Origin: an uncultured Planctomycetaceae bacterium
GTDB taxonomy: Bacteria; Planctomycetota; Planctomycetia; Pirellulales; Pirellulaceae
Direction: 5' to 3'
Length of the DNA: 55,907 nt
Assembly (NCBI GenBank): GCA_903863885.1
Contig: CAIPEB010000326.1
Coordinates: 1-55,907 of the forward strand
The notes beneath the pieces are model-generated. The model was not told the origin of the DNA. It ran no database searches and worked only from the letters and a program-made list of their open reading frames with translations. The position numbers and the translations under genes are program-made. Position 1 is the first letter of the stretch. Each line of letters begins with the position of its first letter. Shown here in pieces: positions 2,519-55,907 of this stretch.

Positions 2519-2762
2519 CGCCGTTCACTTCGTCCGGGGTCGATATTGCAGTCTGCGTGCTTTGACTGGGGGATGTGAAAGCTCAAGGTATAAGGGTTGT
2601 GAAGATGTCTGGCAACGCAAATAATGGGATCCTGGGTGTCCGAGAGGCCTGCGCGGCTGACGCGAAGGGCGTTCTTCACCGAAGCTGGCCCTGTCTGGCA
2701 GAGTAGCTCCTCGGGACCGCGATGTAGTTCTTCTCGCGTCGCGACCGCATAAGGAACTCGTT

Positions 2763-3770: not shown

Positions 3771-3837
3771 TCCAGCCGCGTTCCGGCCGAATCGTCTCCG
3801 GTTTCCGCACCGAACGCACAGTCATGAGGTAGCCATC

Positions 3838-14703: not shown

Positions 14704-15375
14704 TTACTTCTTGCGGGCCGTCTTGACGAATTCCTGGAACTTGGCGGCCTGGGCCTCCATCGTCGCCTGGGGGCCATAGGCCTTGACGAAGATCGCCTGA
14801 TCTCCGGCCGGTATGATGGCGGCGATCATGCGGTAGTTCTTTCGCAGAACGCTAGGTCCCATCATCCCGCGCGAATCGTTGAAGTCACCTGAAAAGTCGA
14901 CGGTCGTGATTTCCAGTCCTTCGACCTGAATTTTTTTGGTGTCTTCCTTGGTGGGCTTTGGCGCGAACTGGGTACGCCATCGATCAACGTTCGCATCGAC
15001 GCTGCCGCCGGCAGAGCTCAGCGTGAGACGCCCATCCGCTTCGTCTCCCTGGGCTCGCGGCAAGACGTACTCAGCGGTCACGAAGCCCGAACTGGCTGCC
15101 TTGCGACCCCAGCCGGCGGGCGCGGTCAACTTGATCGCACCGACTTCGACCTCGCCGCCCTTGTCGTCCAGCACTTCGGGCTTGGCGGGCTCTTCGGCAG
15201 CTGCTCCGGCGTGCGCCTTGGCGGGGGTTTCAGCGGCCGCGTCCGCGAGCGTCTGCGGTTGGGTCGTAGTGGTTTCCTCAACGTCGGCGTCCGCTGTCGA
15301 ATCGGGTTCCGGAGCGTTCTGGCAGCCGGTCAACATGACCAGGGCAGCAAACGCAAAGGGGAAAAGGTACTTCAT
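14704..15375 (-). CDS. hypothetical lipoprotein with acidic low-complexity linker
   Basis: Signal peptide plus lipobox MKYLFPFAFAALVMLTGCQ; followed by a terminator; no recognisable domain. Confidence 0.6.
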   Translation of the reverse strand: MKYLFPFAFAALVMLTGCQNAPEPDSTADADVEETTTTQPQTLADAAAETPAKAHAGAAAEEPAKPEVLDDKGGEVEVGAIKLTAPAGWGRKAASSGFVTAEYVLPRAQGDEADGRLTLSSAGGSVDANVDRWRTQFAPKPTKEDTKKIQVEGLEITTVDFSGDFNDSRGMMGPSVLRKNYRMIAAIIPAGDQAIFVKAYGPQATMEAQAAKFQEFVKTARKK

Positions 15376-16100
15376 GCTTTGATCTCCTTCAGATCTTCTT
15401 CAATGGTCTGTTTTTTGTTTGTAATAGGTCTTAGCCCGATGTGGACCTGCACCGAGCGAGGGGGGCCGGATTCGGCCGTGGCAAGATGGATGTTCTGCAT
15501 ACTAACTGGAGGGCGAACGACTTGTCGAGGTGCCGTTCCGCCCACCCTTCGCTTTTCGCACCCTCCGAAGGTGTTCGTATGGTCAGATGCCGGATACCGG
15601 ATGGCCGAGTTGACATTCAGGGGCTTCGCATCGCAGGATGAGAACTCCGATGCCAATCGACGGAAGCTGGAGAGTGAGATGATTCGTGGCTTATCCGCGA
15701 AGACCCGTGGCCTTTTTCCCTCCGCGTGAACAAATGAGTCGATCCCCCTCTCCCTGTCGGCCGCTGCTCATTGCGATGTGTCTGTCCAGTTATCATGGCG
15801 GAGCGTGCGTGGCAAATGCAGACGGGTCAACGCAGTGGCTGGACGACGCAACGGCGGAAGAGACGGTGAGGGCACTGCTCGCTCAATAGGCTGCACGGGC
15901 CGCTTGGGACGCGTGTTATTGACAGATCCGACACTTGTGCAAACGCCGTTTGCCTGTGTCTAGCGTCTCTCCTCGAACTTGAAGACCATTCCTGCTTCTC
16001 GGTGAAGCCGATCGCGAGAAGGCTGGTTTTCCGCTTCCGCCCGTGCACATAAAATCAAATCGGTCAATTTCTATCGACGAACTGCACGAGGGCGGCTCGC

Positions 16101-30308: not shown

Positions 30309-30902
30309 CTATTTTGCCGCATCTACGCGTTCGATCACTTTGTCGATCAGTCGATATTCCATGGCCTCATCGGCCGTCATGAAGCGATCGCGGTCAGTGT
30401 CCTTCTCGATGCGATCCAGCGGATGGCCCGTGTGCTTGATCAGGATCTGGTTCATCCGCTCCTTGATGCGTTTGAACTCGCGGGCGTGAATGGCGATTTC
30501 TTCGGCGGTGCCCTGCATTCCGGCCAGCGGCTGGTGGATCATGATTCGTGCGTTGGGAAGCGCAAATCGCTTTCCGGTTGCGCCGGCGGTCAGCAGGATT
30601 GCGCCCATCGACGCGGCCTGTCCGATGCAGTAGGTCGCAACGTCGCACGCCACGAACTGCATCGTGTCGTAAATCGCCATGCCGGCGCTCACGCTTCCGC
30701 CGGGCGAGTTGATATACAGGTGGATGTCGGCGCGGGGATCTTCCGATTGCAGGAAGAGCATCTGGGCGACGATGCAATTGGCGATTTCGTCATCAACGCC
30801 CGTGCCGAGAAAGATGATGCGGTCCTTGAGCAGCCGGCTGTAAATGTCGTAAACCCGCTCTTCACGGCCGCTCTTCTCGATGACGTACGGTATGGTTGGC
30901 AT
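30309..30902 (-). CDS. clpP: ATP-dependent Clp protease proteolytic subunit
   Basis: Near-identical to canonical ClpP over its length ([23 protein letters not shown]..., Ser-His-Asp triad context GQAASMG, IMIHQP); start MPTIPYV with GGAG RBS. The alternative upstream start at 30917 is possible. Confidence 0.9.
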
Positions 30903-30988
30903 CGCCGCTCGCTCCATTCGCTCTTGACCGGGGGCTGGTCGTCGTGCCGGTCTTCCCGGATAACGCACTACCTCGGCCTATGAGTTCT

Positions 30989-31654
30989 TCAACTCGATTT
31001 GGGGCCGTCCCAGGGCTTTTCGTTCTCGTCCTCGTCGCTTTCCGGTTTGGTCAGGATGGAATCGACGAGGCCGTATTCCTTGGCTTGTTCCGGGGTCAGG
31101 AACAGATCCCGATCCGTGTCCTTGGCGATCGCGGCAAGTTCCCTGCCGGTGTGCCGCGACAAGATGTCGTTCAGCATCTCGCGATTTCGCAGGATTTCGT
31201 TCGCCTGGATTTCAATGTCGCTGACCTGGCCGCTCACACCGCCGAACGGCTGATGCAGCAGCACCCGCGAATGAGGCAGTGCGAATCTCTTGCCTTTGGT
31301 ACCGCCTGCCAGCAGCACGGCAGCACCGCTGGCTGCCTGACCGACGCAGTACGTGGCGACCGGGCAACTGAGAATCTGCATCGTGTCGTAAATCGCCAGC
31401 GTCGAGATCACGTCGCCGCCGGGCGAATTCAAATAGAAGTGGATGTCTTTGCGCCGGTTTTCGCTCTGCAGATAGAGCAGCTTCATCACCACTTCGTTGG
31501 CGTTGCCGGTGTAAATCTCGCCCTGGAGAAACACGATACGGTTTTCCAGGAGCAAATCACCGAGCGTAAGCTGACGCTGTCGTTGATACGACTGGTACGA
31601 GTACGAGTTGAGTAGGGGTGCCGACGATCCGCTCATGGCAGCAGCATCCTTCAT
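30989..31654 (-). CDS. clpP: ATP-dependent Clp protease proteolytic subunit paralog
   Basis: Second ClpP (LGDLLLENRIVFLQGEIYTGNANEVVMKLLYLQ...GQAASGAAVLLAGG...VLLHQP) with acidic C-terminal tail; tandem with clpP1. Confidence 0.85.
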   Translation of the reverse strand: MKDAAAMSGSSAPLLNSYSYQSYQRQRQLTLGDLLLENRIVFLQGEIYTGNANEVVMKLLYLQSENRRKDIHFYLNSPGGDVISTLAIYDTMQILSCPVATYCVGQAASGAAVLLAGGTKGKRFALPHSRVLLHQPFGGVSGQVSDIEIQANEILRNREMLNDILSRHTGRELAAIAKDTDRDLFLTPEQAKEYGLVDSILTKPESDEDENEKPWDGPKSS

Positions 31655-31754
31655 CTCTGGCGGCAGGCCGAGTCACGCGCCGCAAATTTCGCGGGGGAAG
31701 GGGTTGCGAGCCAAGCCGCCTGCGGCTCGACTCCCAGGCACAGCCGCAGCAGAC

Positions 31755-33242
31755 TCAGCTATGCGTCGAAGTCCCGGGCAACTCCTCGGCTTCGCCCTGG
31801 TACTTCGCGTCCGGTATCTCGGCATCGGCGTCATGGCCGCCGATAGCATGGTCGATCCCTGCGGTGTCCTCGCGATGGGGCTCGAAGGGCACATCCGTGA
31901 ATTCGGCGTGTGATGTGATCAGTGCAATCACCTTGCGCTCGACGATCTGATTGCGCAGCGAATCCATCTGGCCCCGCTTCTCAAGACGGGCTCTCACGCG
32001 TCGAGGCGATTCCTGGCTTTGGGCTGCAATCAGTTTCACTTCCGCATCGTAGTCGCCGGGCGCGGCGTCAACTTTTTCTTCTTCCGCAATGCGTTCCAGG
32101 ATGAAATGTTCCTTCAACGCAACCGCCGTCGTCTGCTCGCTGTTCTGACGCAGCTGATTTTGGTATGCGCGGATGAATTCATCCGAGAAACCGCTTGCTC
32201 GCAATTCGAGCACGGCTCGCTCCAGTTCACGCCGCGACTGACGACGCAGCAGGTCGGAGGGCAGTTCCCAGTCCGCAGACTGCACCAGCAGACCGCTGAT
32301 CTGCTTGCGAATCTGCTGCTGCTGGTAGTAATTCAACTGTCTTTCGAGTTCATCCCGAACCGCGTTTCGCAGTTCGTCTTCGTCCTCGAATCCGCCGATG
32401 GAGTCCAGGAAGCTCGGAGTCAGTTCCGGCAGTTGCATTCCCTTGACGTCAACGACTCGAATCTCGACGTCAAGTTCCTTGCCTCGCATCTCTTCGCGAT
32501 CGGCTTGGTCGCTGATCTTCGCCTTCACCGAACGGCAGTCGCCCGCTTTGGCTCCGATCATGAGCGAATCAAAACCGTCGATCGTCGTATCGCGGAAGCT
32601 CAACTTCGGACGGATTTCAACGGTCTGTTCGGTGATTTCCGATACGACGTGATCGCCGTCCTTGCTCACCACCTGAATCGTAACGCGATCGTCCGCTTCG
32701 GCCGGACCTTCCTTCGACGTCAATTGCCCGTAACGAGCCAGCAATTTGCGGAGATGAGCCTGAATATCGGCATCCGTGTACTCACGGACCGGTCGCTTCA
32801 GGTTCAGTCCTTTCCATTGCGGCAGGTCGAATTCCGGCCGGACTTCGATCTCGAACTCGAACGTCAACGGCCCCTCTTCCGGCAATTCGATCGCTTCAAA
32901 ATCGAAGTCGGGCTCGCTGATCGCCGAAAAAGAAGAGTCTTCGTTGATCTGGGTCACGCTGTCCATCAACAGCGAACCTTTGACCTGATTGGCCATCTGC
33001 TCGCGGAACCGCGTTTCGACCAGCTTCCTCGGGGCTCGTCCGGGACGAAAACCCGGGACTTCAGCCTTCGGGGCCAGATCGTCGAAAGCTTCCTTGAAAT
33101 ACCGATCGATATCGGCGCGCGGAACCGTCACCGTCACATGGCGTTTGCATGCACCACGCTTTTCGACTTTGATCTCGAGAGCCAACTTGGCCTTCGGCGT
33201 CTCTTCGGCTTCGTTTGCCAAATCGATTTCGGGATTTGCCAT
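31755..33242 (-). CDS. tig: trigger factor (ribosome-associated PPIase chaperone)
   Basis: N-terminal ribosome-binding domain (GFRPGRAPRKLVE), FKBP-like middle, C-terminal arm; classic tig-clpP order. Confidence 0.9.
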   Translation of the reverse strand: MANPEIDLANEAEETPKAKLALEIKVEKRGACKRHVTVTVPRADIDRYFKEAFDDLAPKAEVPGFRPGRAPRKLVETRFREQMANQVKGSLLMDSVTQINEDSSFSAISEPDFDFEAIELPEEGPLTFEFEIEVRPEFDLPQWKGLNLKRPVREYTDADIQAHLRKLLARYGQLTSKEGPAEADDRVTIQVVSKDGDHVVSEITEQTVEIRPKLSFRDTTIDGFDSLMIGAKAGDCRSVKAKISDQADREEMRGKELDVEIRVVDVKGMQLPELTPSFLDSIGGFEDEDELRNAVRDELERQLNYYQQQQIRKQISGLLVQSADWELPSDLLRRQSRRELERAVLELRASGFSDEFIRAYQNQLRQNSEQTTAVALKEHFILERIAEEEKVDAAPGDYDAEVKLIAAQSQESPRRVRARLEKRGQMDSLRNQIVERKVIALITSHAEFTDVPFEPHREDTAGIDHAIGGHDADAEIPDAKYQGEAEELPGTSTHS

Positions 33243-33286
33243 CGGTGTGCAGCTACGTCAAACGGTGCGTGTGTCAAATAAAAAAG

Positions 33287-33359
33287 AGCGGGTGATGGGA
33301 ATCGAACCCACGACAACAACGTTGGCAACGTTGTGCTCTGCCAACTGAGCTACACCCGC
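33287..33359 (-). tRNA. tRNA-Gly (anticodon GCC), 73 nt, CCA not encoded
   Basis: Reverse complement folds as a cloverleaf: acceptor GCGGGTG/CACCCGC, D-arm GCTCAGTTGGCAGAGC, anticodon stem-loop CAACG-TTGCCAA-CGTTG, T-arm GTGGGTTCGATTCCCAT, discriminator U; followed by a T-run. Confidence 0.85.
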
Positions 33360-37842: not shown

Positions 37843-37929
37843 CCGCTTCAGCGGGTGAACTCCGTAATTCTTCAGTGCAACAAGTCTCTGAAAGTCATTG
37901 AGCGCCCTCAGTTTCCGGGCGAGATTCCA

Positions 37930-38958
37930 ATGTCCAACAACTACGATGCCGTGCTGGTTCTTTCATTCGGCGGTCCCGAATGCCGCGAGGATGTGCTGCC
38001 CTTCCTCGAAAACGTGCTTCGCGGAAAGAACGTGCCGCGCGAGCGGATGCTGGAGGTCGCGGAGCACTACTATCACTTTGGCGGTGTCAGTCCGATCAAC
38101 GCCCAGAATCGGGAGTTGATCGCTGCTCTGAAGGACGTGCTCGACCGTCAGGGGCCGAGGCTGCCTGTCTACTGGGGCAATCGCAACTGGGCGCCATTCC
38201 TGACGGATACGCTGCGCCAGATGAAAAGCGACGGAGTGAAACGGGCCGTGGTATATGTCACCTCGGTCTTCGGTTCGTATTCGGGCTGCCGCCAGTATCG
38301 CGAAGACATCGGACGGGCGATTCAGGAAGTCGGAGAGGGTTCGATCGCGGTCGACAAAATGCGTTGCCCGTTCAACCACCCCGGATTCATTTCCGCGATG
38401 GCGGATCGCGTGCAAACTGCGACCCGGCAGTTGACCATCCCGGCCTCAGGCAAGTTGCGTCTGGTGTTCACAGCGCACAGCGTGCCGATCGCCATGGCAC
38501 GCACGTCTCCTTATGAGGCCCAGCTTCATGAGGCGTGCCGTCTGGTGAGCGAAACCGCCGGGCATTCCGACTGGTGTCTCGTCTACCAGAGCCGCAGCGG
38601 TCCGCCGACCCAGCCATGGCTCGAGCCAGACGTGTGCGCCTACCTGCGCGATGTGCACTCCAAGGGCGAGGTTGCCGGAGTCGTGCTCGTTCCGATCGGG
38701 TTCACTTCCGATCACATGGAGGTGATCTACGATCTCGACACCGAGGCGCGGCAGTTGTGTGATTCGCTGGGGTTGCCGATGGTGCGTGCAGCCACCGTGG
38801 GTACGCACCCGAAGTTCATCGAGATGCTGCGGGCCCTGATCGTCGAGCGGGTGGAGAACGGTCCCCGTCTGACGCTCGGCACCATGCCGGCGGCGGCCGA
38901 CGTCTGTCCGCCCGACTGCTGTGCCGTAGTTCGCGGCCGACCTGCCGCTGCGTCGTGA
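37930..38958 (+). CDS. hemH: ferrochelatase
   Basis: N-terminus MSNNYDAVLVLSFGGPE and conserved His and Glu regions (TAHSVPIAMA, VPIGFTSDHMEVIYDLD) typical of HemH/CpfC. Confidence 0.9.
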   Translation: MSNNYDAVLVLSFGGPECREDVLPFLENVLRGKNVPRERMLEVAEHYYHFGGVSPINAQNRELIAALKDVLDRQGPRLPVYWGNRNWAPFLTDTLRQMKSDGVKRAVVYVTSVFGSYSGCRQYREDIGRAIQEVGEGSIAVDKMRCPFNHPGFISAMADRVQTATRQLTIPASGKLRLVFTAHSVPIAMARTSPYEAQLHEACRLVSETAGHSDWCLVYQSRSGPPTQPWLEPDVCAYLRDVHSKGEVAGVVLVPIGFTSDHMEVIYDLDTEARQLCDSLGLPMVRAATVGTHPKFIEMLRALIVERVENGPRLTLGTMPAAADVCPPDCCAVVRGRPAAAS

Positions 38959-39336
38959 TGAACTACTTCCCGAACTGTCCGAGGGCCGGATTCGTAGAGA
39001 GCTAGGTCGGCAGGCGGAAGGGGGCGAGAGTCGCAGAGCAAAAAAGACAGGCGCGTCCCGTTTTGTTAAAACACGTAACGTGGGTGAATGATGTGGGTGC
39101 CGCTGCGTTACGGCCTATAACGTTCCGTATCGAGACGCGCCTGTGCAGAGATAAACCGAACGAACCCAAACGTATGCATTATTTGTGCCGAACAAACGAT
39201 ACAACTTTCATAATGTCTGCAACCGGTTGATTTGTCTACCGGCCTCTGTGCATAAGTTTCTTCTTTCAAAACACTTGCTGTTGGTGTTCAGGCGGATGCT
39301 GCGACCGAATTTCGGCGCGGTTTGGCGGCTTGGTAC

Positions 39337-39365
39337 GCGACAGGCATGGCAACGTTTTGTACAAT
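39337..39365 (+). promoter_or_regulatory. candidate sigma-70-like promoter (GCGACA -35, 17-bp spacer, TACAAT -10) in an AT-rich leader
   Basis: Pattern match only, about 105 nt upstream of the sigma-54 activator start codon; promoter rules in Planctomycetota are poorly defined. Confidence 0.2.
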
Positions 39366-39471
39366 CTGATCAGTTTTTGATCATGTCATCGAGGCGCGCA
39401 AGGCGCCTGTCAGGCGTCTCGGCTTTGGAGATCGCCTAACTCGTTGCGTCGATTCGGTTGGGGGCAACCCG

Positions 39472-40956
39472 ATGCCGTTGATTCTCGTCATCGACGACGA
39501 TCCGATGGTGCAGCATTGGTTTCGTCGTGAATTTGAAAACACGGACTTTGAGGTGGTGCCGGCTCGGAGTGCTCTCGAGGGGCTGGGGCTATTGCGTGGG
39601 CATTCACCGGACGTGGTGATGCTGGATGTGGTATTGCCCGACATGTCGGGTCTCGATGCGTACCAGCGGATCCACGAATCGGACCCGAAACTGCCGGTGA
39701 TTTTCATCACGGCGGGCGGCGAGAGTGAGACGGCGATTGAAGCGATGAAACTGGGGGCTCTGGACTATTTGTTCAAGCCGCTCGATCGCAAGCAGGTCCG
39801 GCATCTGGTGGGACGCGCGATCGAGATCCGTCGCCTGATGGAGACGCCGGTACAGTTTCAGACAACGTCCGTCGACCTGGGGAGTCCGGACGTGCTGGTC
39901 GGCCGCTGCACGGCCATGCAGGAAGTCTACAAGGCGATCGGCCGCGTGGCGTCGCAGGATGTGACGGTGCTCATTCAAGGCGAAAGCGGCACGGGCAAAG
40001 AACTGGTCGCCCGGGCGATTTACCAGCACAGCCGCCGCACCGCCGGTCCGTTTCTTGCGATCAATTGCGCGGCGATTCCCGAATCGCTCCTGGAGAGCGA
40101 GCTGTTCGGGTACGAGCGGGGGGCCTTTACGGGGGCCGAGCACCGGCGGATCGGCAAGTTCGAGCAGTGTTCGGGCGGGACGCTTTTTCTGGACGAAATT
40201 GGAGACATGTCTGCGTCGACGCAGAGCAAAGTACTGCGAGTGCTGCAGCAGCAGCGTTTCGAACGACTCGGTGGAAGCGAGACGATCGAGACCGACGTAC
40301 GCATCATCGCCGCCACGAATCGCGATCTCGACGAACTGGTGGGACAGGGGAGGTTTCGGGCCGACCTCTTCTACCGGTTGAACGTTGTCACTATCCAGTT
40401 GTCTCCGCTGCGAGAACGGCTCACGGATATTCCGCTGCTTCTGCATCACTACCTCAGCCGTTTCAGCCGCGATTTGAGAAAGAGCGTGACCTCCATCGCG
40501 CCCGAATCGCTGGACATGCTGCTCAGCTACCACTGGCCGGGCAACATCCGCGAGTTTCAGAGCGTGATCAAACATGCGATTCTGCACGCGACCGGGTCCG
40601 TGCTGCTCCCGGACTTCATGCCCGACTCGGTTCGCGGCGCCCGTGTCCGATCCGCGGGCGGCGGCGTCGACTGGGCGGCCAACGGCGGGGTACCTTGGGA
40701 GACGTTCATTCAGCAGCAGCTTTCCGGCCAGACGAATACGCTGTATGCCGATGTAATTGCTCAGGTCGAGCGGCACCTGCTTGCGGCGGTCCTGCGACAC
40801 ACCAATGGGAATCGGGTGCAGGCCGCGCGGATTCTGGGAGTGACCCGCAGCACGTTGCGCAGCAAGATGTCGTCGCTCGGGATCAGCATCGGGAATTCCG
40901 TGTTGGCGGAACGCGGGGCCGGCGGCGAGTCCTCTGACGGTGCCCGCGATGAGTGA
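39472..40956 (+). CDS. sigma-54-dependent transcriptional activator, NtrC-family response regulator (REC plus AAA+ plus Fis-HTH)
   Basis: REC domain with phospho-acceptor Asp context (VVMLDVVLPDMSG), Walker A GESGTGKELVARAIY, GAFTGA motif, ESELFGYERGAFTGA, C-terminal HTH; no adjacent histidine kinase. Confidence 0.9.
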   Translation: MPLILVIDDDPMVQHWFRREFENTDFEVVPARSALEGLGLLRGHSPDVVMLDVVLPDMSGLDAYQRIHESDPKLPVIFITAGGESETAIEAMKLGALDYLFKPLDRKQVRHLVGRAIEIRRLMETPVQFQTTSVDLGSPDVLVGRCTAMQEVYKAIGRVASQDVTVLIQGESGTGKELVARAIYQHSRRTAGPFLAINCAAIPESLLESELFGYERGAFTGAEHRRIGKFEQCSGGTLFLDEIGDMSASTQSKVLRVLQQQRFERLGGSETIETDVRIIAATNRDLDELVGQGRFRADLFYRLNVVTIQLSPLRERLTDIPLLLHHYLSRFSRDLRKSVTSIAPESLDMLLSYHWPGNIREFQSVIKHAILHATGSVLLPDFMPDSVRGARVRSAGGGVDWAANGGVPWETFIQQQLSGQTNTLYADVIAQVERHLLAAVLRHTNGNRVQAARILGVTRSTLRSKMSSLGISIGNSVLAERGAGGESSDGARDE

Positions 40957-43900
40957 GCCAGCGACGTCCATCCATTCTTCGTCGCTGGCCGGCTTTCATG
41001 CGATCGTGCGGCAGTGGTTTTGTCAGACTTTCGAGCAGGCGACACCCGCGCAGGCGATCGCCTGGCCGCTGATCGCGGATCACCGGCACACACTGCTGCT
41101 TGCGCCGACCGGTTCAGGAAAAACGCTGGCCGCGTTTCTTGTGGCGATCAATCGCATCATGTTCGAGTCCGCGGCCGCCGAGTCGTCCGGCGTGCGCGTC
41201 CTTTATATCTCGCCGCTGAAGGCGCTTGGCGTGGATGTTGAACGCAATCTGAGGTCGCCGGTCATCGGTGTCCGCACCTTGGCCGAGCGGGAGGGCGTGG
41301 CGCATCGCGTCCCCCGCGTCGGAGTCCGATCGGGGGACACGGCGACCCGGGATCGGCTCGACCTTGTAAAACGCCCGCCCGACATCCTGATCACGACGCC
41401 CGAATCGCTTTACCTGATGCTGACATCGCAGGCGCGTCGCATTCTGCGAACCGTGGACACGGTGATCATCGATGAGATTCACTCGCTCGTCAGCAACAAG
41501 CGGGGAGCCCATCTGTTTGTGTCGCTGGAGCGTCTCGAATCGCTTCGCCGCGAGCAGCAGGCTGCCGCTCGACCGCTGCAGCGGATCGGGCTTTCCGCGA
41601 CTCAGCGGCCGCTCGACGAGATCGCGCGACTGCTGGGAGGCGCCGAGGCAACGAGCAATCCGGACGAAACGCCGCGCCGCCGGCCGGTGGAAATTGTCGA
41701 GGCCGGGGTCAGCAAGCAGCTGGAGTTGCGGATCGAAGTGCCTGTCGAAGACATGGCACGCCTGGCCGAACCGATCATCGTGTCGGGTTCGGCATCTGCC
41801 GGTCCCACGCTGCCGTCGATCTGGCCGGCGATTCATCCGCGGCTGGTGGAACTGATCCGCTCGCACCGCAGCACGATGATCTTCGTCAACAGTCGACGTC
41901 TGGCCGAGCGGCTGGCGGCGGCGCTGAATGAACTGGCGGGCGAGGAGTTGGTGTTGGCCCACCACGGGTCGATCGCCAAGGACAAGCGGCTGGAGATTGA
42001 GGACAAGCTCAAGTGCGGGCAGTTGCCGGCGATCGTGGCTACCTCGTCACTGGAGTTGGGGATCGACATGGGCGCCGTGGATCTGGTGATCCAGGTCGAA
42101 TCGCCGCCGTCGATTGCTTCCGGCATTCAGCGAATAGGCCGCGCCGGGCATCGGGTGGGAGAGCCTTCGACCGGCGTGATCTTCCCGAAGTATCGGGGCG
42201 ATCTGCTGGCTTGCGCAGCGGCCGGCGAGAAGATGGTGCGCGGGGAGGTCGAGTCGACGTTCTATCCCCGCAATCCGCTCGACGTCCTGGCCCAGCAGCT
42301 GGTGGCCATGGTCTCGCTTCAGACGGTATCCGTGGACGAACTTTATGCGATCGTGCGGGGGGCGGCGCCGTTCTTCGATCTCCCGCGGGGGAACTTCGAG
42401 GGAGTGCTCGACCTTCTGTCGGGACGGTATCCGTCGGATGAGTTCGCGGAATTGAGGCCGCGTATCACGTGGGATCGCGTGGCCGGCGAGGTATCGCCCC
42501 GTCGCGGAACGCAGCGTTTGGCGATTGCGAATGCCGGGACCATCCCCGACCGCGGTCTCTACGGCGTGTTTCTGGCCGGGGCCGAGGGGCCGGGGAACCG
42601 CGTGGGTGAACTCGACGAAGAGATGGTCTTCGAGACGCATCCGGGCGATGTGTTCCTGCTGGGCGCATCGTCGTGGCGCGTCGCGGACATCACGCACGAT
42701 CGGGTACTGGTCGTTCCCGCGGCCGGCGAACCGGGAAAAATGCCGTTCTGGCGAGGGGAGGGGCCGGGCCGCCCCTTGGAGTTCGGCCGCGCCATCGGCG
42801 CGCTGGTCCGGCGGTTTTCGCGAGCCGATTCGACGGCCGCGCGGCAGGAACTGGTGAGTCAGCACGGACTGGGACCGGAGGCGGCCGCCAATCTGCTGAG
42901 GTACCTGGAAGACCAGGCTCAGGCCACGGGCGAAGTGCCCACCGATCGAGAGATTGTCGTGGAGTGTTTCCTGGACGAAGTGGGCGATTGGCGGATTGCC
43001 GTTCTTTCGCCGTTCGGTGCCAGGGTGCACGCGCCGTGGGCCATGGCCGCCGTTGCCCGATTGCGGGAACTGACGCCGGGCGAAGTCGACATGGTCTGGA
43101 GCGATGACGGGATCGTTTTTCGACTGCCCGAGTCGGACGAACCGCCGCCGCTCGAGTGGTTGTTTCCTTCGGCGGAAGAGATCGAGGACCTCGTGGTCAA
43201 CCAGTTGGGCGGCACGGCGCTTTTCGCATCGCGGTTCCGAGAGAACTCGGCCCGCGCGCTGCTGCTGCCCCGGCGGCAACCCGGCCGCCGCACGCCGCTG
43301 TGGATTCAGCGCCGACGGTCCGCCGATCTGCTGTCCGTGGCCGCCAGATATCCCGGTTTTCCGATGTTGCTGGAGACTTACCGCGAGTGTCTGCGCGACG
43401 TCTTCGATCTGCCCGGGCTGAAGGGCCTTCTCGCTGAAATTGCCAACGGTTCGATTCGCGTGCATCGCGTCCGCACCGAGACGGCGTCGCCTTTTGCCGC
43501 GTCGCTGCTGTTCAATTACACGGCCAATTTCCTGTACGAGGGAGATGCTCCGCTGGCGGAACGCCAGGCTCAGCTTCTGGCGCTGGATCACGCTCAACTG
43601 CGGGAGCTTCTGGGCGACGCGGAAATCCGCGAGCTGTTGTCGGCCGAGGTGGTCGAAGAATTGAACCTCGAACTGCAGGGGCTCGTCTCCAATCGAAGGC
43701 TGACGCATCCGGATACAGTGCATGACGCTTTGCTGCGTTTGGGCGACTTGAGCCGCGACGAACTTGCGCAGCGATGTTCCCCCGAAACCTCGGACGCCGG
43801 GCTGCTGGACCGCTGGCTCGAAGAGCTTGTGGTTCAGCGCCGCATCCTGGAGGTGCGGATCGCGGGCGAGCGTCGCATGGTGGCCGCGGAGGACGCGGGC

Positions 43901-45466
43901 CGTTTTCGCGACGCGCTCGGATGCATGCTCCCTTCGGGCCTCCCAGCGGCCTTCCTCGCGCCCGTCGCCGATCCGCTCGGCGATATCGTATCCCGATACG
44001 CGCGCACTCACGGTCCGTTCCGCAGCGAGCACCTGGCGCAGCGATTCGGCGTGGGGGTGGCTGTGGTTCATGCGGCGCTCGAGCGGCTCGCGTCGCGGGG
44101 ACGCGTTCTCGAGGGCGAGTTCCTGCCCGGCGGTTTCGGCCGCGAATGGTGCGAAGCGGAAGTGCTGCGAACGCTGAAACGGAGATCGCTCGCGCGGCTG
44201 CGCAAACAGGTCGAACCGGTCTCGCGGCAGTCGCTGGCGCGTTTCCTGCCGAGTTGGCAGGGGATTCTGCAGCCGAGGAGAAGTCTGGACGGACTCTTGG
44301 ATGTCATCGAGCAGTTGCAGGGCATGCCGCTGCCGGCCTCCGACCTCGAGCGGGACATCCTGCCGCGGCGGCTCAGAGGCTACAAACCGAGCGACCTCGA
44401 TGAACTGTGTGCGGCCGGCGAAGTCGTGTGGCGCGGAATGGAGAGTCTCGGCCAGGGTGAAGGCCGCATCTCGCTCTACCTGACCGATCACTATTCGCGG
44501 CTGGCCCCTCACTGCCCGCCGATCGAAGACCCGCTGGCCGAACGCATTCGGGAACTGCTGGCCAGGCAGGGCGCACTGTTCTTTGATGCGATCGTCAAGT
44601 CTCTGGCCGTTTTCTCTCGTGATGTGCTGGATGCTTTGTGGAACCTGGTCTGGGCCGGCGTTGTGACGAACGACACGCTGGCTCCGCTGCGTTCGCTGCG
44701 GCGACAGGCGTCGGGCAAGCGGCCGGTGCGCCGCGGCCGCGACCGGTTTCGCTCGCGGCGCGAGTCGCGCACGCCGGGTTCCGAAGGCCGCTGGTCGCTC
44801 CTCATGCCGGATGAAGCCAGCCGGCCGACCGCCACCGAAAGGATCGCCGCGATTGCATCCCAGCTGCTGCACCGCTACGGAATCCTGACTCGCGAAATGG
44901 CGGCCTCGGAGAATCTGGCCGGAGGATTTGCGGGGCTGTATCCGATGCTGAAGGCCATGGAAGAGGCGGGGAAGATCCGCCGCGGGTACTTTGTCGCGGG
45001 GTTGGGAGCCGCGCAGTTCTCGAATCCCGGCGCGGAAGACCGGCTGCGTGAATTCAAGAGTGTCCCGGACGACACGAGCCTCGATGCGCTGCTGCTGGCG
45101 GCGACCGATCCGGCCAATCCTTACGGGACCGTTTTTCGCTGGCCGGATGCAGACGTGGACGGTTCCCGTCCGCAGCGAGCCGCCGGGGCGAGGGTCATCC
45201 TCGGCGACGGCGAACTTCTCGGCTATCTGAGCCGATCGGGCCAGCATCTGTATACTTTCTTGCCGGAGGATCAGTTGCAGAGGAATCGTGCCACGGCGGC
45301 GGTTGCGAGCGCGCTCGCAGGGCTGGCTTCGGCCACGGAAGCGGTTTTTGTCACTCGGGTCAATGGTCGGCAGCCCGGCGATACGGAGATGGCTGTGCCG
45401 CTCCGGGAAGCCGGTTTCATCCAGACGACGCGGGGCTATCTGCATCGCCGGCGATTGGATGAATAA
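40940..45466 (+). CDS. lhr: Lhr-family ATP-dependent DNA helicase (large helicase-related, full length about 1500 aa)
   Basis: Superfamily-2 motifs (APTGSGKT, DEIH, SAT) in an Lhr-core arrangement plus long C-terminal extension; GTG 40940 or ATG 40949 start, both overlapping the preceding stop. My base numbering differs by one from the ORF track here, so coordinates in this gene are good to within one base. Confidence 0.9.
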   Translation: MPAMSEPATSIHSSSLAGFHAIVRQWFCQTFEQATPAQAIAWPLIADHRHTLLLAPTGSGKTLAAFLVAINRIMFESAAAESSGVRVLYISPLKALGVDVERNLRSPVIGVRTLAEREGVAHRVPRVGVRSGDTATRDRLDLVKRPPDILITTPESLYLMLTSQARRILRTVDTVIIDEIHSLVSNKRGAHLFVSLERLESLRREQQAAARPLQRIGLSATQRPLDEIARLLGGAEATSNPDETPRRRPVEIVEAGVSKQLELRIEVPVEDMARLAEPIIVSGSASAGPTLPSIWPAIHPRLVELIRSHRSTMIFVNSRRLAERLAAALNELAGEELVLAHHGSIAKDKRLEIEDKLKCGQLPAIVATSSLELGIDMGAVDLVIQVESPPSIASGIQRIGRAGHRVGEPSTGVIFPKYRGDLLACAAAGEKMVRGEVESTFYPRNPLDVLAQQLVAMVSLQTVSVDELYAIVRGAAPFFDLPRGNFEGVLDLLSGRYPSDEFAELRPRITWDRVAGEVSPRRGTQRLAIANAGTIPDRGLYGVFLAGAEGPGNRVGELDEEMVFETHPGDVFLLGASSWRVADITHDRVLVVPAAGEPGKMPFWRGEGPGRPLEFGRAIGALVRRFSRADSTAARQELVSQHGLGPEAAANLLRYLEDQAQATGEVPTDREIVVECFLDEVGDWRIAVLSPFGARVHAPWAMAAVARLRELTPGEVDMVWSDDGIVFRLPESDEPPPLEWLFPSAEEIEDLVVNQLGGTALFASRFRENSARALLLPRRQPGRRTPLWIQRRRSADLLSVAARYPGFPMLLETYRECLRDVFDLPGLKGLLAEIANGSIRVHRVRTETASPFAASLLFNYTANFLYEGDAPLAERQAQLLALDHAQLRELLGDAEIRELLSAEVVEELNLELQGLVSNRRLTHPDTVHDALLRLGDLSRDELAQRCSPETSDAGLLDRWLEELVVQRRILEVRIAGERRMVAAEDAGRFRDALGCMLPSGLPAAFLAPVADPLGDIVSRYARTHGPFRSEHLAQRFGVGVAVVHAALERLASRGRVLEGEFLPGGFGREWCEAEVLRTLKRRSLARLRKQVEPVSRQSLARFLPSWQGILQPRRSLDGLLDVIEQLQGMPLPASDLERDILPRRLRGYKPSDLDELCAAGEVVWRGMESLGQGEGRISLYLTDHYSRLAPHCPPIEDPLAERIRELLARQGALFFDAIVKSLAVFSRDVLDALWNLVWAGVVTNDTLAPLRSLRRQASGKRPVRRGRDRFRSRRESRTPGSEGRWSLLMPDEASRPTATERIAAIASQLLHRYGILTREMAASENLAGGFAGLYPMLKAMEEAGKIRRGYFVAGLGAAQFSNPGAEDRLREFKSVPDDTSLDALLLAATDPANPYGTVFRWPDADVDGSRPQRAAGARVILGDGELLGYLSRSGQHLYTFLPEDQLQRNRATAAVASALAGLASATEAVFVTRVNGRQPGDTEMAVPLREAGFIQTTRGYLHRRRLDE

Positions 45467-45547
45467 ACACGGAGTTTCCACGAGCGGCCCGCGAGCAGTT
45501 TTCGGGGCCGTCCCTTTCGTATTCCCGGAAGCGATGCGAGGCGGATC

Positions 45548-46345
45548 ATGCCGGAAGGAGACACGATCTACCGCATAGCCGTTCGCCTGCGGCCCATCCT
45601 CGAGCAGCAGCGCATCGCGCACGTGACGGCACGCGATTCGCGGCTGGCTGTCGATACGGTCGCGGGGCAGATCGTCGCTTCGATCGAACCGCGGGGAAAG
45701 CACCTGTTGATCCATCTCGCCAACGGGCACGCCGTGCACTCGCACCTTGGGATGACCGGCTCCTGGCACGTCTATTCCATCGGCGAGACCTGGCTCAAGC
45801 CGGCTTCTTATGCGGCATTGACCCTGTCGACGGAGCGCGCCGTCTGCGTGTGTTTCAGTCCGAAGACCCTGGAGTTGCTTTCGCCGGATGCCCTGCGGAG
45901 GCACACGCATCTGCACCGCCTTGGCCCGGATGTACTGGCGGATGACTTTGACGGCGAGCAGGCTCTCGTCCGGTTTCGTGTCCGCGATGACTTGCCGATC
46001 GGCGAAGCCATCATGGACCAGACGATCCTGTGCGGTGTGGGCAATATCTACAAATCCGAAACGCTGTTCAAATGCCGGCTGAATCCGTTCCGTCCGGTTT
46101 CTTCGCTGACGGACGGCGAATTGCGAGGGCTGATCGTCGCGGCTCGACGGCTGATGCGGGCCAATCGTACCGGGCACGATCGTCGCACTCGTTTCCAGCA
46201 CGACGGCGACCGATTCTGGGCCTACGGCCGCAGCGGTCAGCCGTGTCTGCATTGCGGGCAACGCATCTGCATGCGGCATCAGGGAACACTCGGCAGGTCC
46301 ACGTACTGGTGTCCAGGTTGCCAGCCCGCAGCTCAGGGTCAATGA
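45548..46345 (+). CDS. nei: Fpg/Nei-family DNA glycosylase (endonuclease VIII-like)
   Basis: Catalytic N-terminus MPEGDT (Pro2 nucleophile), H2TH region, C-terminal zinc finger CLHCGQ...CPGC; 82 nt downstream of lhr, as in mycobacterial lhr-nei operons. Confidence 0.85.
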   Translation: MPEGDTIYRIAVRLRPILEQQRIAHVTARDSRLAVDTVAGQIVASIEPRGKHLLIHLANGHAVHSHLGMTGSWHVYSIGETWLKPASYAALTLSTERAVCVCFSPKTLELLSPDALRRHTHLHRLGPDVLADDFDGEQALVRFRVRDDLPIGEAIMDQTILCGVGNIYKSETLFKCRLNPFRPVSSLTDGELRGLIVAARRLMRANRTGHDRRTRFQHDGDRFWAYGRSGQPCLHCGQRICMRHQGTLGRSTYWCPGCQPAAQGQ

Positions 46346-46381
46346 ACTGCCGCAAGACTTCATGCAGGGGAGTTCACGGAA

Positions 46382-47272
46382 ATGCACATCGCGATAACAG
46401 GATCGTCCGGCCTGGTGGGGCGCGAGTTCGTGGCGATGGCCACGCCGCTTGGAAGTCGCATCACCCGGATGGTGCGCGGCATGCCGGCTGAGGGGCAATT
46501 GCAGTGGGATCCTCTGTCGGGCGTGTCGGACGCGAAAGGGCTCGAAGGCGTCGATGCCGTGGTGCATCTTGCGGGAGAGAACATCTCTGCGCGACGCTGG
46601 ACCGCTGAGTTCAAACGCCGCATCCGGGACAGCCGGGTGCTGGGCACGCGTTCGCTCTGCGAGTCCCTCGCAAGCCTGCACCGGCCGCCGCGAGTACTTG
46701 TCGCGGCTTCCGCCGTCGGTTTCTACGGCGACCGGCCGGGCGAGTATCTGGACGAGTCCTCGCCGCCGGGGACCGGCTTTCTTGCAGAGACGTGCCGTGA
46801 ATGGGAGGACGCTTCCTCGCCGGCTCGCGATGCGGGAATCCGCGTCGTTTTTCTGCGGTTCGGCATGGTACTCAGCGCGCACGGCGGAGCGCTGGCCAAA
46901 ATGCTGCCCCCTTTCCGACTCGGCCTCGGTGGACGCGTGGGCAGCGGTCGGCAGATCTGGAGCTGGATTGCCGTGCAGGATGCGGCCGGCGCAATCGCCC
47001 ACTGTCTGGCGGCGGAGTCCCTCAGCGGCCCGGTCAATGCGGTGGCGCCCGAGGCAGTCAGCAGCGCCGAGTTCGCTCGCGCGGTCGCTCTGAGATTGCG
47101 GCGTCCGGCATTTGCCGCGGTGCCGGCCTGGGCGGCGCGGGCGGTGTTCGGTGAAATGGCCGACGAACTTCTTCTGTCCAGCGCCTGTGTTCGGCCGCGA
47201 GTGCTGCTCGAGAGCGGTTTCGCGTTTCGTTACCCGACATTGAGCGGGGCACTTCAACATTTGCTCGGCTGA
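46382..47272 (+). CDS. NAD-dependent epimerase/dehydratase family protein, YfcH-like (SDR39U1, with DUF1731 C-terminus)
   Basis: N-terminal Rossmann MHIAITGSSGLVGREF; C-terminal DUF1731-like segment. Confidence 0.75.
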   Translation: MHIAITGSSGLVGREFVAMATPLGSRITRMVRGMPAEGQLQWDPLSGVSDAKGLEGVDAVVHLAGENISARRWTAEFKRRIRDSRVLGTRSLCESLASLHRPPRVLVAASAVGFYGDRPGEYLDESSPPGTGFLAETCREWEDASSPARDAGIRVVFLRFGMVLSAHGGALAKMLPPFRLGLGGRVGSGRQIWSWIAVQDAAGAIAHCLAAESLSGPVNAVAPEAVSSAEFARAVALRLRRPAFAAVPAWAARAVFGEMADELLLSSACVRPRVLLESGFAFRYPTLSGALQHLLG

Positions 47273-53368: not shown

Positions 53369-54358
53369 TCATTCCGTTGCCGGCGCGAATCCCGCCTGCT
53401 GAAGCATAGCCCGCAGTTTGTCCACGGCTCCCGCGCACACCTGCTGAGCCCGCTGCTTGGTGACGCCCCATTCCTGAGCCAGATCCTTCAGAGTCGCCGG
53501 GTCTGCGGATTCGTCCAGTCCGAAGCGGGTCACGACCGCCAGACGCTCCCGTTCCTTGAGCTGGTCCAGCAGTGAACTGATCGCGTCCCGAACTTCCTGG
53601 TTGGCGAGTTGCTCGTCTGCGGATTCCCATTCCCCATCAACGGCCTCGATCCCGTCAAGCGTTTCGCCGGCAAATCGCGTCATCTGCCGCCGCGAACGGT
53701 GGTAGTACGCGAGCAGCTTGTTGGAAATCGCCCAGGTTGCGTAGGTGCTCAGTTTCGTGCCGCGCGAGAAATCGAAGTGCTGTACGGCCTGCACCAGACC
53801 GATGTTTCCTTCGCTGATCAGTTCGTCGAGCGCCAGTCCGGTGGTGCGTGAAAACTGCTTGGCTCGTGCCGTGACCAGACGCAGGTTGCACTCGACGATG
53901 AAGTTGCGCAGTTGTACGGCCTCCGCCTCCAGCTGCTCGATGGCTTCGACTTCGTCGATCGTGGCAGATGCCGGGTCAAGTCGCTGTCGCAGGCGATGTG
54001 CACGGAACTTCAGATAGTTCATGCGACGGAACAGGACGAATTCCTCGTCGCGGGACAGCGGATCCGTGCGATAGAGGAACGCCACGTAGAAATCTGCGTT
54101 GCGTTCCGCCTGGTCGCTGCCGGCACGCCTGCCTGCCAGCGATCGCCGCACGGTATCGAGGCCGTCCCGAAGGATCTCTTCTTCCGCCTGCGGAGCGTCG
54201 AAGCTGGAATGATAAATGAACTGCGGTTCGGCTCGCAGAATTCTCTCTGCGCGGCGAACAACGTCGCTTCTCGCAATCCGGTTTCGACGCACAGTTCGTT
54301 GTTTGGCAATCATCGCTCTCAGCCTCCGCATCGGTGATTTCGTGCGGTACCCTGCCAA
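53369..54358 (-). CDS. sigma-70 family RNA polymerase sigma factor (regions 2, 3 and 4 present)
   Basis: Region 2 (NLRLVTARAKQFSRTTGLALDELISEGNIGLVQAVQHFDFSRGTKLSTYATWAI), region 4 HTH (LKDLAQEWGVTKQRAQQV). N-terminal start uncertain. Confidence 0.8.
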   Translation of the reverse strand: MAGYRTKSPMRRLRAMIAKQRTVRRNRIARSDVVRRAERILRAEPQFIYHSSFDAPQAEEEILRDGLDTVRRSLAGRRAGSDQAERNADFYVAFLYRTDPLSRDEEFVLFRRMNYLKFRAHRLRQRLDPASATIDEVEAIEQLEAEAVQLRNFIVECNLRLVTARAKQFSRTTGLALDELISEGNIGLVQAVQHFDFSRGTKLSTYATWAISNKLLAYYHRSRRQMTRFAGETLDGIEAVDGEWESADEQLANQEVRDAISSLLDQLKERERLAVVTRFGLDESADPATLKDLAQEWGVTKQRAQQVCAGAVDKLRAMLQQAGFAPATE

Positions 54359-54727
54359 AGCAACGTTTGTGCCGGATTTGTGCGATTGAACGAATGAACG
54401 AGCGGATTGAGTTGTAAGTCGTTTTTTTCCAGAGCTTTAGATTTTTCGGTCTTTGGTTCGGTCTTCGATGGTTTCTGATCCGCCGGGACTTGGATCAACG
54501 GTATTTGGTTATTTTTTACAGGGGGGCATCTCCATATTTTCAGTGCGGAGCGATTGAATACGGCAGGAGGTATCGTCCTAAGTCAATTATTGGCTTATGA
54601 TTTTGACTAGAGGCCTGGGTTTCATTGTGCCGGTTGCCGAAAATCGGCCAGAGAAATCGCCAGCGTTGAAGAGGTGACGATATTTGGTTGCGTGGCGAAA
54701 TGGTGACGGTCAGGGCGGGTGATGGCG

Positions 54728-55907
54728 TCATTTAATCAAGAGCAATATGACCATGTTGTCGAGGGGCTGATCGAGCAGCTCAACATGGGCAGCAGTTTCG
54801 AGGAGCTGCTGAACTCCGTTTATGACCAGCTGAAGGGTGCTGTCCCGTACGACCGGATCGGAATCGGCGTTCTGGAGGAGCCCGAGGGATTGTTGCGGCT
54901 TGCTTCCTGCCGCAGCAATGGCGAAGTCATGATGAAAATGGGCTATGCGGCTCACCTGTCGGGGTCGACGCTCGAGTCGCTGCTGGCGACGGGGCAGCCT
55001 CGGATCATCAACGATTTGGAGCAGTACCTTGCCGAACGCCCCAGTTCGCTGTCCACGCAGCTCATCGTTCAGGAAGGGATGCGGTCGAGTTTGACGTTGC
55101 CGCTGATCGCTGAAGGAAAGCCGATTGGCGTTGTGTTCTTCTCGAGCCGCGAGCGGAATGTCTATGAGCTGCGTCACGCGGCTTTGCTCAAGCGACTGGC
55201 CGGGCACATCGCGATCAGCATCGAGAAGGCTCGGCTGATTGCGGAACTCCAGAGCCGCAACCGCGAATTGGCCGAAGCGAACCAGACGAAGGATCAGTTT
55301 CTGACGCGGTTGCGCGAGGAGGTTGACCGCCGCACGGAAGAGCTTCGCCGATCCGAGGAGCGGTATCGGCTGCTGGTGAGGTTGGGGCGGATCGTGAATT
55401 CCAGCCTGGAAATCTGCCAGGTGTTCGAGCACGCGGCTGATCAGGTCCATCAGTTGTTGGGATGCGACCGCGTGAGTCTGCTGCTGGTGCGGCAGCGTGA
55501 AAAGTCACGCTTTGGTTTTGCCCTGGATTACACGCCGGTTCGCCGGTGGCGCGAGATCCCGACTCTGCCGCTGGCGGGGTCGGCCGTCCAGTGGGTGATG
55601 GAGCGGGCCGTGCCGAGGGTCGCCCGTCGGCTGGAGGACGATCGCCGATTTCCCGAGGATCACCGGCTGTTTGATTTGGGATACCGGTCGTACGTGTATC
55701 TGCCGCTGGTGTGCCGGCGTCAGGGGCTGGGTGTGCTCGGGATTGCCTCCCATGTCGCCGAGGAGCCGGACCGCTGGGACCTGGCACTGATGAATGAACT
55801 GTGTGACCAGTTGGCAATTTCTCTCGACAACGCCGCCGCCTACGAGGAAATCGCGCGGCTGAAAACGGAACTCCAGCATCAGAACACGTACCTGCGGGAC
55901 GAGATCA
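54728..55907 (+). CDS. GAF-domain sigma-54-dependent transcriptional activator, N-terminal fragment (FhlA/NifA-like), truncated by window end
   Basis: Not in the ORF track because it has no stop. The ATG-initiated frame at 54728 is open to the end of the window (393 codons) and encodes two GAF-like modules ending in the FhlA/NifA-type linker EIARLKTELQHQNTYLRDEI, which normally precedes the sigma-54 AAA+ domain. The three minus-strand ORFs over this region are antisense artefacts. Confidence 0.6.

Follow-up and report, generated by a model that had tools for sequence, protein, structure and literature searches.

A candidate sigma-54-dependent small RNA divergent from an NtrC-class regulator gene that adjoins lhr-nei in a Pirellulaceae contig

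Why should the gene for a sigma-54 activator run directly into a pair of DNA-repair genes? In contig CAIPEB010000326.1 (assembly GCA_903863885.1, an uncultured Planctomycetaceae bacterium of the family Pirellulaceae) the gene for an NtrC-class enhancer-binding protein (EBP) overlaps the start of lhr, a helicase gene, which is followed by nei, a DNA glycosylase gene, and an earlier note on this DNA took the arrangement to suggest regulated, possibly damage-responsive, expression of the repair pair. We analyzed the whole stretch of 55,907 nucleotides, referred to here as the window, together with homologous loci from other genomes, and the most informative feature is the spacer upstream of the EBP gene, just outside the EBP-lhr-nei segment to which that note was confined. 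We think it probable (about 0.6) that the EBP drives a divergent, sigma-54-dependent small RNA (sRNA) encoded in this spacer, and that lhr-nei is a co-transcribed passenger and not a dedicated target. The features that bear on the first part of this reading are as follows.

37855..38958, plus strand: hemH (ferrochelatase), the conserved anchor upstream of the sRNA-EBP block (Pfam)
39040..39165, minus strand: candidate sigma-54-dependent sRNA of ~126 nt (alignment, fold, covariance model)
39175..39190, minus strand: cGGCAC-aaata-aTGCA, a GG-N10-GC candidate for a sigma-54 promoter, directed away from the EBP gene (invariant columns in 7 loci)
39347..39383, no strand assigned: two tandem 17-bp dyads, TGGCAacgttttGTACA and TGATCagtttttGATCA, candidate EBP sites (upstream activating sequences, UAS), 166 and 186 bp upstream of the -24 GG
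39337..39365, plus strand: GCGACA-17-TACAAT, a weak sigma-70-like promoter of the EBP gene that shares positions with the first dyad; TACAAT is present only in the window, L081 and L083
39472..40956, plus strand: gene for the EBP, an NtrC-class sigma-54 enhancer-binding response regulator of 494 aa (Pfam, translation)

The spacer between hemH and the regulator gene

The block cbiX-hemH-spacer-EBP is common to a clade of eight contigs including the window, the clade being defined as a monophyletic group of EBPs of at least 70% identity; hemH, spacer and EBP are together in all eight, with a spacer of 440-630 nt (~500 nt in the window). Alignment of the hemH-EBP spacers of seven distinct loci reveals three conserved blocks within sequence that is otherwise indel-rich and poorly alignable. 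EBPs work on sigma-54 promoters, and a conserved -24 GG/-12 GC element lies upstream of the candidate RNA: the family form GG(C/T)AC-N5-ATGC(A/T) is found on the minus strand in six of the seven distinct loci, and the columns GTGCC and GCA are invariant across all seven, at 241-353 nt from the EBP ATG. Within the window the exact pattern GGCAC-N5-WTGCW has only two matches, this promoter among them, against 0.5 expected, and a search with the promoter pattern upstream of more distant EBP homologues gave no match.

The dyads have the family consensus TGGTC-N7-GACCA and lie 20 bp apart. TGATCagtttttGATCA is the sole exact match to this pattern in the window and TGGCAacgttttGTACA is weaker; perfect copies are present in L086 and L087. 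In every locus the dyad centers fall 154-206 bp upstream of the -24 GG, as in the layout of known sigma-54-dependent sRNA genes with their UAS ~100-200 bp upstream of the promoter. The predicted sites appear to belong with the sigma-54 promoter, because this distance is kept whereas the EBP ATG lies anywhere from 66 to 189 nt away. From the dyads to the promoter the GC content is 43-44%, compared with 62% for the window and genome, and such AT-rich DNA would suit looping.

The candidate RNA follows this promoter on the minus strand. Since the C of the -12 GC is at 39176, transcription is predicted to start near 39165 and, ending at 39040, to yield ~126 nt, made up of a 5' leader of ~20 nt, a 14-bp closing helix (39144-39131 with 39060-47), an interior of ~70 nt and a U6 tract (39045-39040). 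The closing helix is GC-rich, with the arms ACAGGCGCGUCUCG ... CGGGACGCGCCUGU, and starts 35-45 nt downstream of the promoter in every locus, and a run of five to seven U ends every copy of the element. RNAalifold predicts 20 pairs from the seven distinct sequences, five of them with compensatory changes, and the structure as a whole is 96.4% paired, against 33-52% when the partners are slid by one to three columns; five pairs are changed on both sides, a number reached in three of 500 shuffles. The closing helix taken alone is 99% paired, with covariation in four of its 14 pairs. A covariance model scores 130.8 bits on the minus strand of the window and 21.9 bits on the plus strand, and recovers one copy per locus in eight related loci (88-133 bits) and none beyond the training clade in the 173 loci (1.9 Mb) searched. 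Just 5' of the closing helix is a C/U-rich single-stranded stretch that reads CCCCC at four loci and CUCUGC or CUCCGU at two and is, in the modeled fold, a candidate seed. Nothing in Rfam 15, which includes Qrr, GlmY/Z, CrcZ, Pxr and others, matched at gathering score; the best permissive match, rpfG, reached 17.7 bits against a threshold of 75.9, and we rejected all such matches as being at chance level. A literature search for sigma-54-dependent sRNAs in Planctomycetes gave no relevant description.

Could the element be something other than an sRNA gene, such as a DNA palindrome or protein site, a 3' element of hemH or a bidirectional terminator, with the GG-N10-GC an unrelated conserved site? 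Its arms are nearly perfect inverted repeats and could act as DNA, the inner structure is poorly supported, and the plus strand still reaches 21.9 bits in the covariance model. The closing helix, however, contains nine G.U and no A.C cells, which argues that the minus strand is the RNA strand and that the object of selection has been RNA rather than a DNA palindrome. The U-run is likewise confined to the minus strand, the plus strand showing an A-run ahead of the stem but lacking a T-run behind it, and the promoter precedes the stem at its constant distance in every locus. The element also keeps clear of hemH, with 34-204 nt between it and the stop codon in all loci, and it is present in single copy per locus with none elsewhere in the 1.9 Mb searched. 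We consider a non-RNA role improbable on these grounds.

For the sRNA we propose that the phosphorylated EBP would bind the two TGGTC-N7-GACCA dyads, that the DNA would loop over the AT-rich stretch of ~150 bp, and that the EBP would open the minus-strand -24/-12 promoter, giving a transcript that folds into the long closing helix and stops at the U-tract. Phosphorylation should be needed since the REC domain of the EBP is intact, and sigma-54 since GAFTGA is present. The EBP may also autoregulate through the dyads over its own upstream region, because these overlie the weak sigma-70-like promoter of its gene.

Several points weigh against this proposal. The RNA family consists of only seven distinct sequences from a single clade, its inner helices are weakly supported, the z-score of the single-sequence fold is only -2.4, and a helix around ~70 nt is unusual for a terminator. 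The promoter of L087 has N4 in place of N5, which may be an assembly error, since genes in that assembly are fragmented as if by frameshifts (tig, hemH and the EBP C-terminus). Duplexes predicted for the sRNA with the 5' region of the EBP do not rise above shuffled controls (z from -0.8 to +1.8), by a method ill-suited to such lengths. Finally, EBP homologues at 64-67% identity have neither promoter nor RNA, so that either the element is young or those homologues are not orthologues.

In favor of the proposal is a promoter of the same type (cGGCAC-N5-TTGCT) that precedes a sigma-factor gene of the window. This second near-consensus sigma-54 promoter, cGGCAC-aaacg-TTGCT at 54359-54374 on the minus strand, stands ~45 nt ahead of the Shine-Dalgarno sequence (GGAGG) and start codon (ATG at 54313, 'MIAKQRTV') of a sigma-70-family gene (53369-54313, minus strand), and suggests a cascade from sigma-54 to a sigma-70-family factor. 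The window end truncates its divergent neighbor (54719-55906, plus strand), whose GAF-GAF product could be a GAF-type EBP for this promoter.

The junction with lhr, and what follows the regulator gene elsewhere

The genes downstream of the EBP gene, all transcribed in the same direction, are the following.

40949..45466 (alternative GTG at 40940), plus strand: lhr, full-length, with core helicase and C-terminal winged-helix domains (Pfam, NCBIfam)
45548..46345, plus strand: nei, Fpg/Nei-family glycosylase/lyase (Pfam, NCBIfam)
46382..47272, plus strand: yfcH-type SDR epimerase (DUF1731), conserved downstream flank (Pfam, NCBIfam)

The EBP reading frame ends with the TGA at 40954-40956, and the lhr frame can start at the GTG at 40940 (14 nt before the TGA) or at the ATG at 40949 (5 nt before it, in 'gATGAgTGA'), both of which are in use among public gene calls for the identical sequence. 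The overlaps of 17 and 8 nt that the earlier note had given are thus both correct; its spacer of 82 nt between lhr and the Nei-like glycosylase gene is in fact 81 nt. Four contigs of the clade have this junction, with distances of -8 nt in the window, -8 in L081 (EBP identity 89%), +7 in L083 (79%) and +29 in L085 (72%). No terminator was recognized between EBP and lhr, and the junction leaves no space for a terminator or a promoter. Pattern scans of the window found no sigma-54 promoter before lhr, where the earlier note had proposed to look for one, and none on the plus strand before the EBP gene; the only one nearby faces away from the EBP gene, toward the sRNA. A one-mismatch match at 45764 within nei was rejected, as its -12 GC is missing.

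Co-transcription of lhr-nei with the EBP gene in this lineage is plausible, because the two genes are co-oriented and overlapping, there is no room for a promoter or terminator, and the junction is tight in three further contigs. With no intergenic space, own promoter or intervening terminator for lhr, the most economical account is that lhr-nei would be read through from the EBP promoter; translation of lhr would be coupled to termination of the EBP, with reinitiation at the ATGAGTGA overlap. In this respect the earlier suggestion of a regulated repair pair survives, but the dedicated regulatory link that it implied finds no support in the distribution of the genes.

The repair pair itself is intact. 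Lhr has the Pfam domains DEAD, Helicase_C, WH_Lhr, DEAD_assoc, WH2_Lhr, WH3_Lhr and WH4_Lhr, all above their cutoffs, as expected of a full-length Lhr, and scores 1382.8 with NCBIfam NF007284, slightly under the cutoff of 1496. The nei product has Fapy_DNA_glyco and H2TH domains, the N-terminal 'MPEGD' with Pro2 and Glu3, and a C-terminal CxxC...CxxC zinc finger, all features of an intact Fpg/Nei enzyme; its best NCBIfam match is Nei2 (169.5 against a cutoff of 400). Together the two genes form a self-contained cassette for the repair of crosslinks and base damage.

From species-representative genomes we took 80 lhr loci of other species with Lhr identities of 53-70%, mostly from Pirellulales with some from Myxococcota, Acidobacteriota, Chloroflexota and others, and searched these loci by tblastn with the window proteins. 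A nei gene follows on the same strand at 48 of these loci, in several phyla, whereas an EBP gene directly upstream of lhr is found at none; the lone sigma-54 AAA+ match (L027) is on the opposite strand and 4.3 kb away. The 80 loci revealed no shared neighbors, and gene order around lhr is poorly conserved in planctomycetes. Conversely, no lhr was found near 80 loci of more distant EBPs. A scan of metagenome contigs with the EBP, used as a negative control only, returned mostly generic NtrC homologues of 36-61% identity, none of which had lhr close by.

Within the clade the gene after the EBP varies. It is lhr in half of the eight contigs (the window, L081, L083 and L085), and in three of these, the window, L083 and L085, nei leads on to a yfcH-type epimerase gene. 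In L084, whose EBP is 73% identical, the EBP gene leads across a gap of 19 nt into the epimerase gene with no lhr-nei between them (1447-3838). L086 has an MR_MLE enzyme gene at this position, P0007 has a gene on the opposite strand, and in L087 the place of lhr-nei is taken by unrelated DNA, among it a gene for the reverse transcriptase of a group II intron (RVT_1 and GIIM, 14902-16227). L084 and the window represent a clean presence/absence polymorphism of the lhr-nei cassette, which is separable, since the L084 EBP gene runs directly into the epimerase gene. The simplest history would be a single placement of lhr-nei between EBP and epimerase genes followed by loss or rearrangement in sister lines, and L084 fits the retention of an ancestral EBP-epimerase pair.

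These patterns bear on the view that lhr-nei has the EBP as its dedicated regulator, responsive to a signal or to damage, and that the overlap reflects a selected operon, for example an autoregulated EBP-lhr-nei unit. In its favor, the tight same-strand junction is present in four contigs with EBPs of 72-100% identity, the linked Lhr proteins are monophyletic, suggesting stable inheritance in place, lhr has no recognizable promoter of its own, and the dyads overlap the EBP upstream region, such that autoregulation could pass to lhr. Yet the absence of an upstream EBP gene from all 80 lhr loci elsewhere, and of lhr from half of the contigs with the hemH-sRNA-EBP block, is close to what the earlier note had named as grounds for chance juxtaposition, namely the same gene order lacking the regulator in all relatives, 48 of the 80 loci having kept nei. 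Moreover, the only local sigma-54 promoter drives the opposite strand, neither the EBP gene nor lhr being preceded by one on the plus strand, and the mycobacterial lhr-nei2 operon is under PafBC and not sigma-54 (PMC9841417). We regard a dedicated EBP regulon for lhr-nei as unlikely, and the fusion of the two transcription units appears to be a local, lineage-restricted variant without sign of dedicated regulation.

A further alternative is that the juxtaposition is fortuitous, lhr-nei having its own unrecognized promoter in the 3' end of the EBP gene and the overlap resulting from compaction after a rearrangement. The poor conservation of gene order, without shared neighbors, around planctomycete lhr agrees with this, as does the EBP C-terminal tail that overlaps lhr, which is non-conserved and of low complexity (the EBPs of relatives are 475-485 aa long); planctomycete promoters are, furthermore, poorly known, which makes consensus scans weak evidence. 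Chance does not readily explain, however, why the junction has stayed within 29 nt in four diverged contigs, or why none of them has a -10-like hexamer in the 90 nt before lhr when about half of the planctomycete loci examined elsewhere have such a box near the lhr start. We therefore place chance below the passenger reading, as a doubtful alternative that nonetheless has more to be said for it than a dedicated regulator.

TACAAT or TATATT boxes are found upstream of many other planctomycete lhr genes (L007, L011, L014, L017, L046, L013 and L026). In the first five of these loci the box lies ~3-25 nt from the lhr start codon and resembles an own promoter of leaderless type, and an identical 'TGTCAACTACAAT' is common to L013 and L026 farther upstream of lhr.

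That lhr-nei is a passenger of the EBP gene is suggested, then, by three contrasts: hemH-spacer-EBP is kept in all eight contigs while the gene after the EBP varies; the EBP-lhr pairing is absent from the 80 lhr loci and the 80 other EBP loci, with EBP-epimerase in its place in L084; and many other planctomycete lhr genes have a start-proximal TACAAT-like box where the four EBP-linked ones have none. Two observations pull the other way. The Lhr proteins of the four EBP-linked contigs form one clade in a neighbor-joining tree (this tree and that of the EBPs carry no support values, and they do not decide in which order the adjacency was gained and lost), and the four contigs have kept a tight junction across ~30% protein divergence, which could reflect selection for co-expression of lhr with the EBP. 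A two-component or phosphorelay signal might act through the EBP on both the sRNA and, by autoregulation and translational coupling, the level of Lhr-Nei; we hold this dual control to be a slim prospect, but if true it would amount to signal-responsive DNA repair outside SOS and PafBC, fixed in this lineage. The likely consequence of the EBP-lhr linkage is more modest, with lhr-nei expression riding on the promoter of the regulator gene.

The regulator protein and the rest of the window

The earlier identification of the regulator as an NtrC-type response regulator agrees with both its Pfam domains (Response_reg, 3.7e-28; Sigma54_activat, 1.5e-73; AAA_lid_14; HTH_8, 3.8e-13) and its motifs, which are intact in the translation: the acidic pocket and Asp 'DDD...MLDVVLPD' ('VMLDVVLPD'), the Walker A 'GESGTGKE' and the sigma-54 contact 'GAFTGA'. 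A REC domain with its Asp, an AAA+ domain with GAFTGA and a Fis-type helix-turn-helix place it in class I (NtrC-class) of the EBPs. It scores below every NCBIfam equivalog cutoff, the best being TIGR01818 (ntrC) at 484.3 against 558.6. Homologues number in the thousands, those of Pirellulales and Gemmataceae forming a broad plateau near 60% identity, and many homologues carry the name GlnG in databases; the EBP itself does not qualify as NtrC/GlnG proper, TIGR01818 being sub-cutoff and glnL and glnA absent from the window. Judged by its sequence, it is a generic NtrC-class protein.

The same note had called the regulator an orphan, and no HisKA or HATPase_c domain is indeed found in the 39 open reading frames (ORFs) of the 56-kb window scanned with Pfam; the sole sensor-like ORF without assignment encodes the GAF-GAF protein ~14 kb from the EBP gene that is cut by the window end. 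Planctomycetota have many such 'orphan' sigma-54 activators. However, EBP homologues of 64-65% identity adjoin, divergently, a hybrid kinase (PAS-GAF-HisKA-HATPase-REC-REC-Hpt), so that the orphan state is a matter of position only. Two such kinase genes are the following, and a kinase of their type is a candidate to serve the window EBP as its unlinked cognate phosphorelay.

L088, 3625-7581, minus strand: hybrid kinase beside an EBP homologue, with 3-4 PAS, GAF, HisKA, HATPase_c, two REC and Hpt
L170, 4037-7600, minus strand: hybrid kinase of the same composition, beside an EBP homologue

The window is planctomycetal in gene content, with PSCyt1/PSCyt2/PSD1 and DUF1501 genes, and its nearest Lhr relatives are in Pirellulaceae metagenome-assembled genomes. 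A minus-strand ORF of 1737 aa (42047-47260) extends antisense across lhr, nei and the epimerase gene without domain support; it and other overlapping ORFs were treated as high-GC artefacts, because the Pfam domains sit in the plus-strand frames, although this one could trap naive ORF callers. Farther upstream, on the minus strand (30309-33359), are two tandem clpP genes, tig and a tRNA gene (33287-33359), and then Band_7/SPFH genes; this block has a syntenic counterpart ahead of cbiX-hemH in L085, L086 and L087.

Comparison with known systems

The linkage of lhr and nei was noted earlier as known from mycobacteria, and this is correct: the mycobacterial lhr-nei2 operon (PMC9841417) contributes to the repair of inter-strand crosslinks (PMC9841417, PMC11323726), and is induced from its own promoter via PafBC (PMC9841417). 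As there, a full-length Lhr gene is followed by a co-oriented gene of the Nei family. Unlike there, lhr starts in the stop region of the EBP gene without a recognizable promoter, and the Nei2 and Lhr scores are sub-cutoff. With NtrC/GlnG the EBP shares its domain architecture and its best NCBIfam match, but it differs in its sub-cutoff score and in having no glnL or glnA neighbor. The candidate dyad differs from the NtrC site.

For the spacer, the relevant precedents are sigma-54-dependent sRNAs beside the gene of their EBP. In Myxococcus, pxr adjoins nla19 (PMC5568312), and GlrR-GlmY of the Enterobacteriaceae and CbrB-CrcZ of Pseudomonas are further cases (PMC3045617, PMC8871633). The window has in common with all three a -24/-12 promoter, here a candidate one, for the sRNA in an intergenic region adjoining an NtrC-type regulator gene; in those systems the sRNA gene follows the EBP or kinase genes or has their orientation, whereas here it is divergent and without homology to them. 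A candidate cassette of EBP, UAS, sigma-54 promoter and sRNA in Planctomycetota would provide a concrete target for a widely conserved planctomycetal EBP, and the combination of cGGCAC-N5-WTGCW with TGGTC-N7-GACCA offers a template for finding the rest of its regulon.

The LuxO site is TTGCA-N3-TGCAA. Here, unlike in LuxO-Qrr1, the dyad is TGGTC-N7-GACCA, the phylum is Planctomycetota, the EBP scores 349 against the NCBIfam LuxO cutoff of 800, and the RNA matches Qrr in neither sequence nor structure, its ~126 nt being arranged around one long closing helix where Qrr has four short stem-loops. What the locus does share with LuxO-Qrr1 is a class I EBP (REC-AAA+-HTH) and the predicted layout of a divergent sRNA gene with UAS dyads between the two at about -130 to -200 (PMC10162802), together with an EBP that, to judge from the hybrid kinase of its homologues, is probably fed by a phosphorelay and not by an adjacent kinase. 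Among the Vibrionaceae, a Qrr gene opposite luxO is present in 20 of 21 taxa (PMC10162802), and the candidate sRNA described here may represent a new family of this known kind, a sigma-54-dependent sRNA encoded beside its own EBP.

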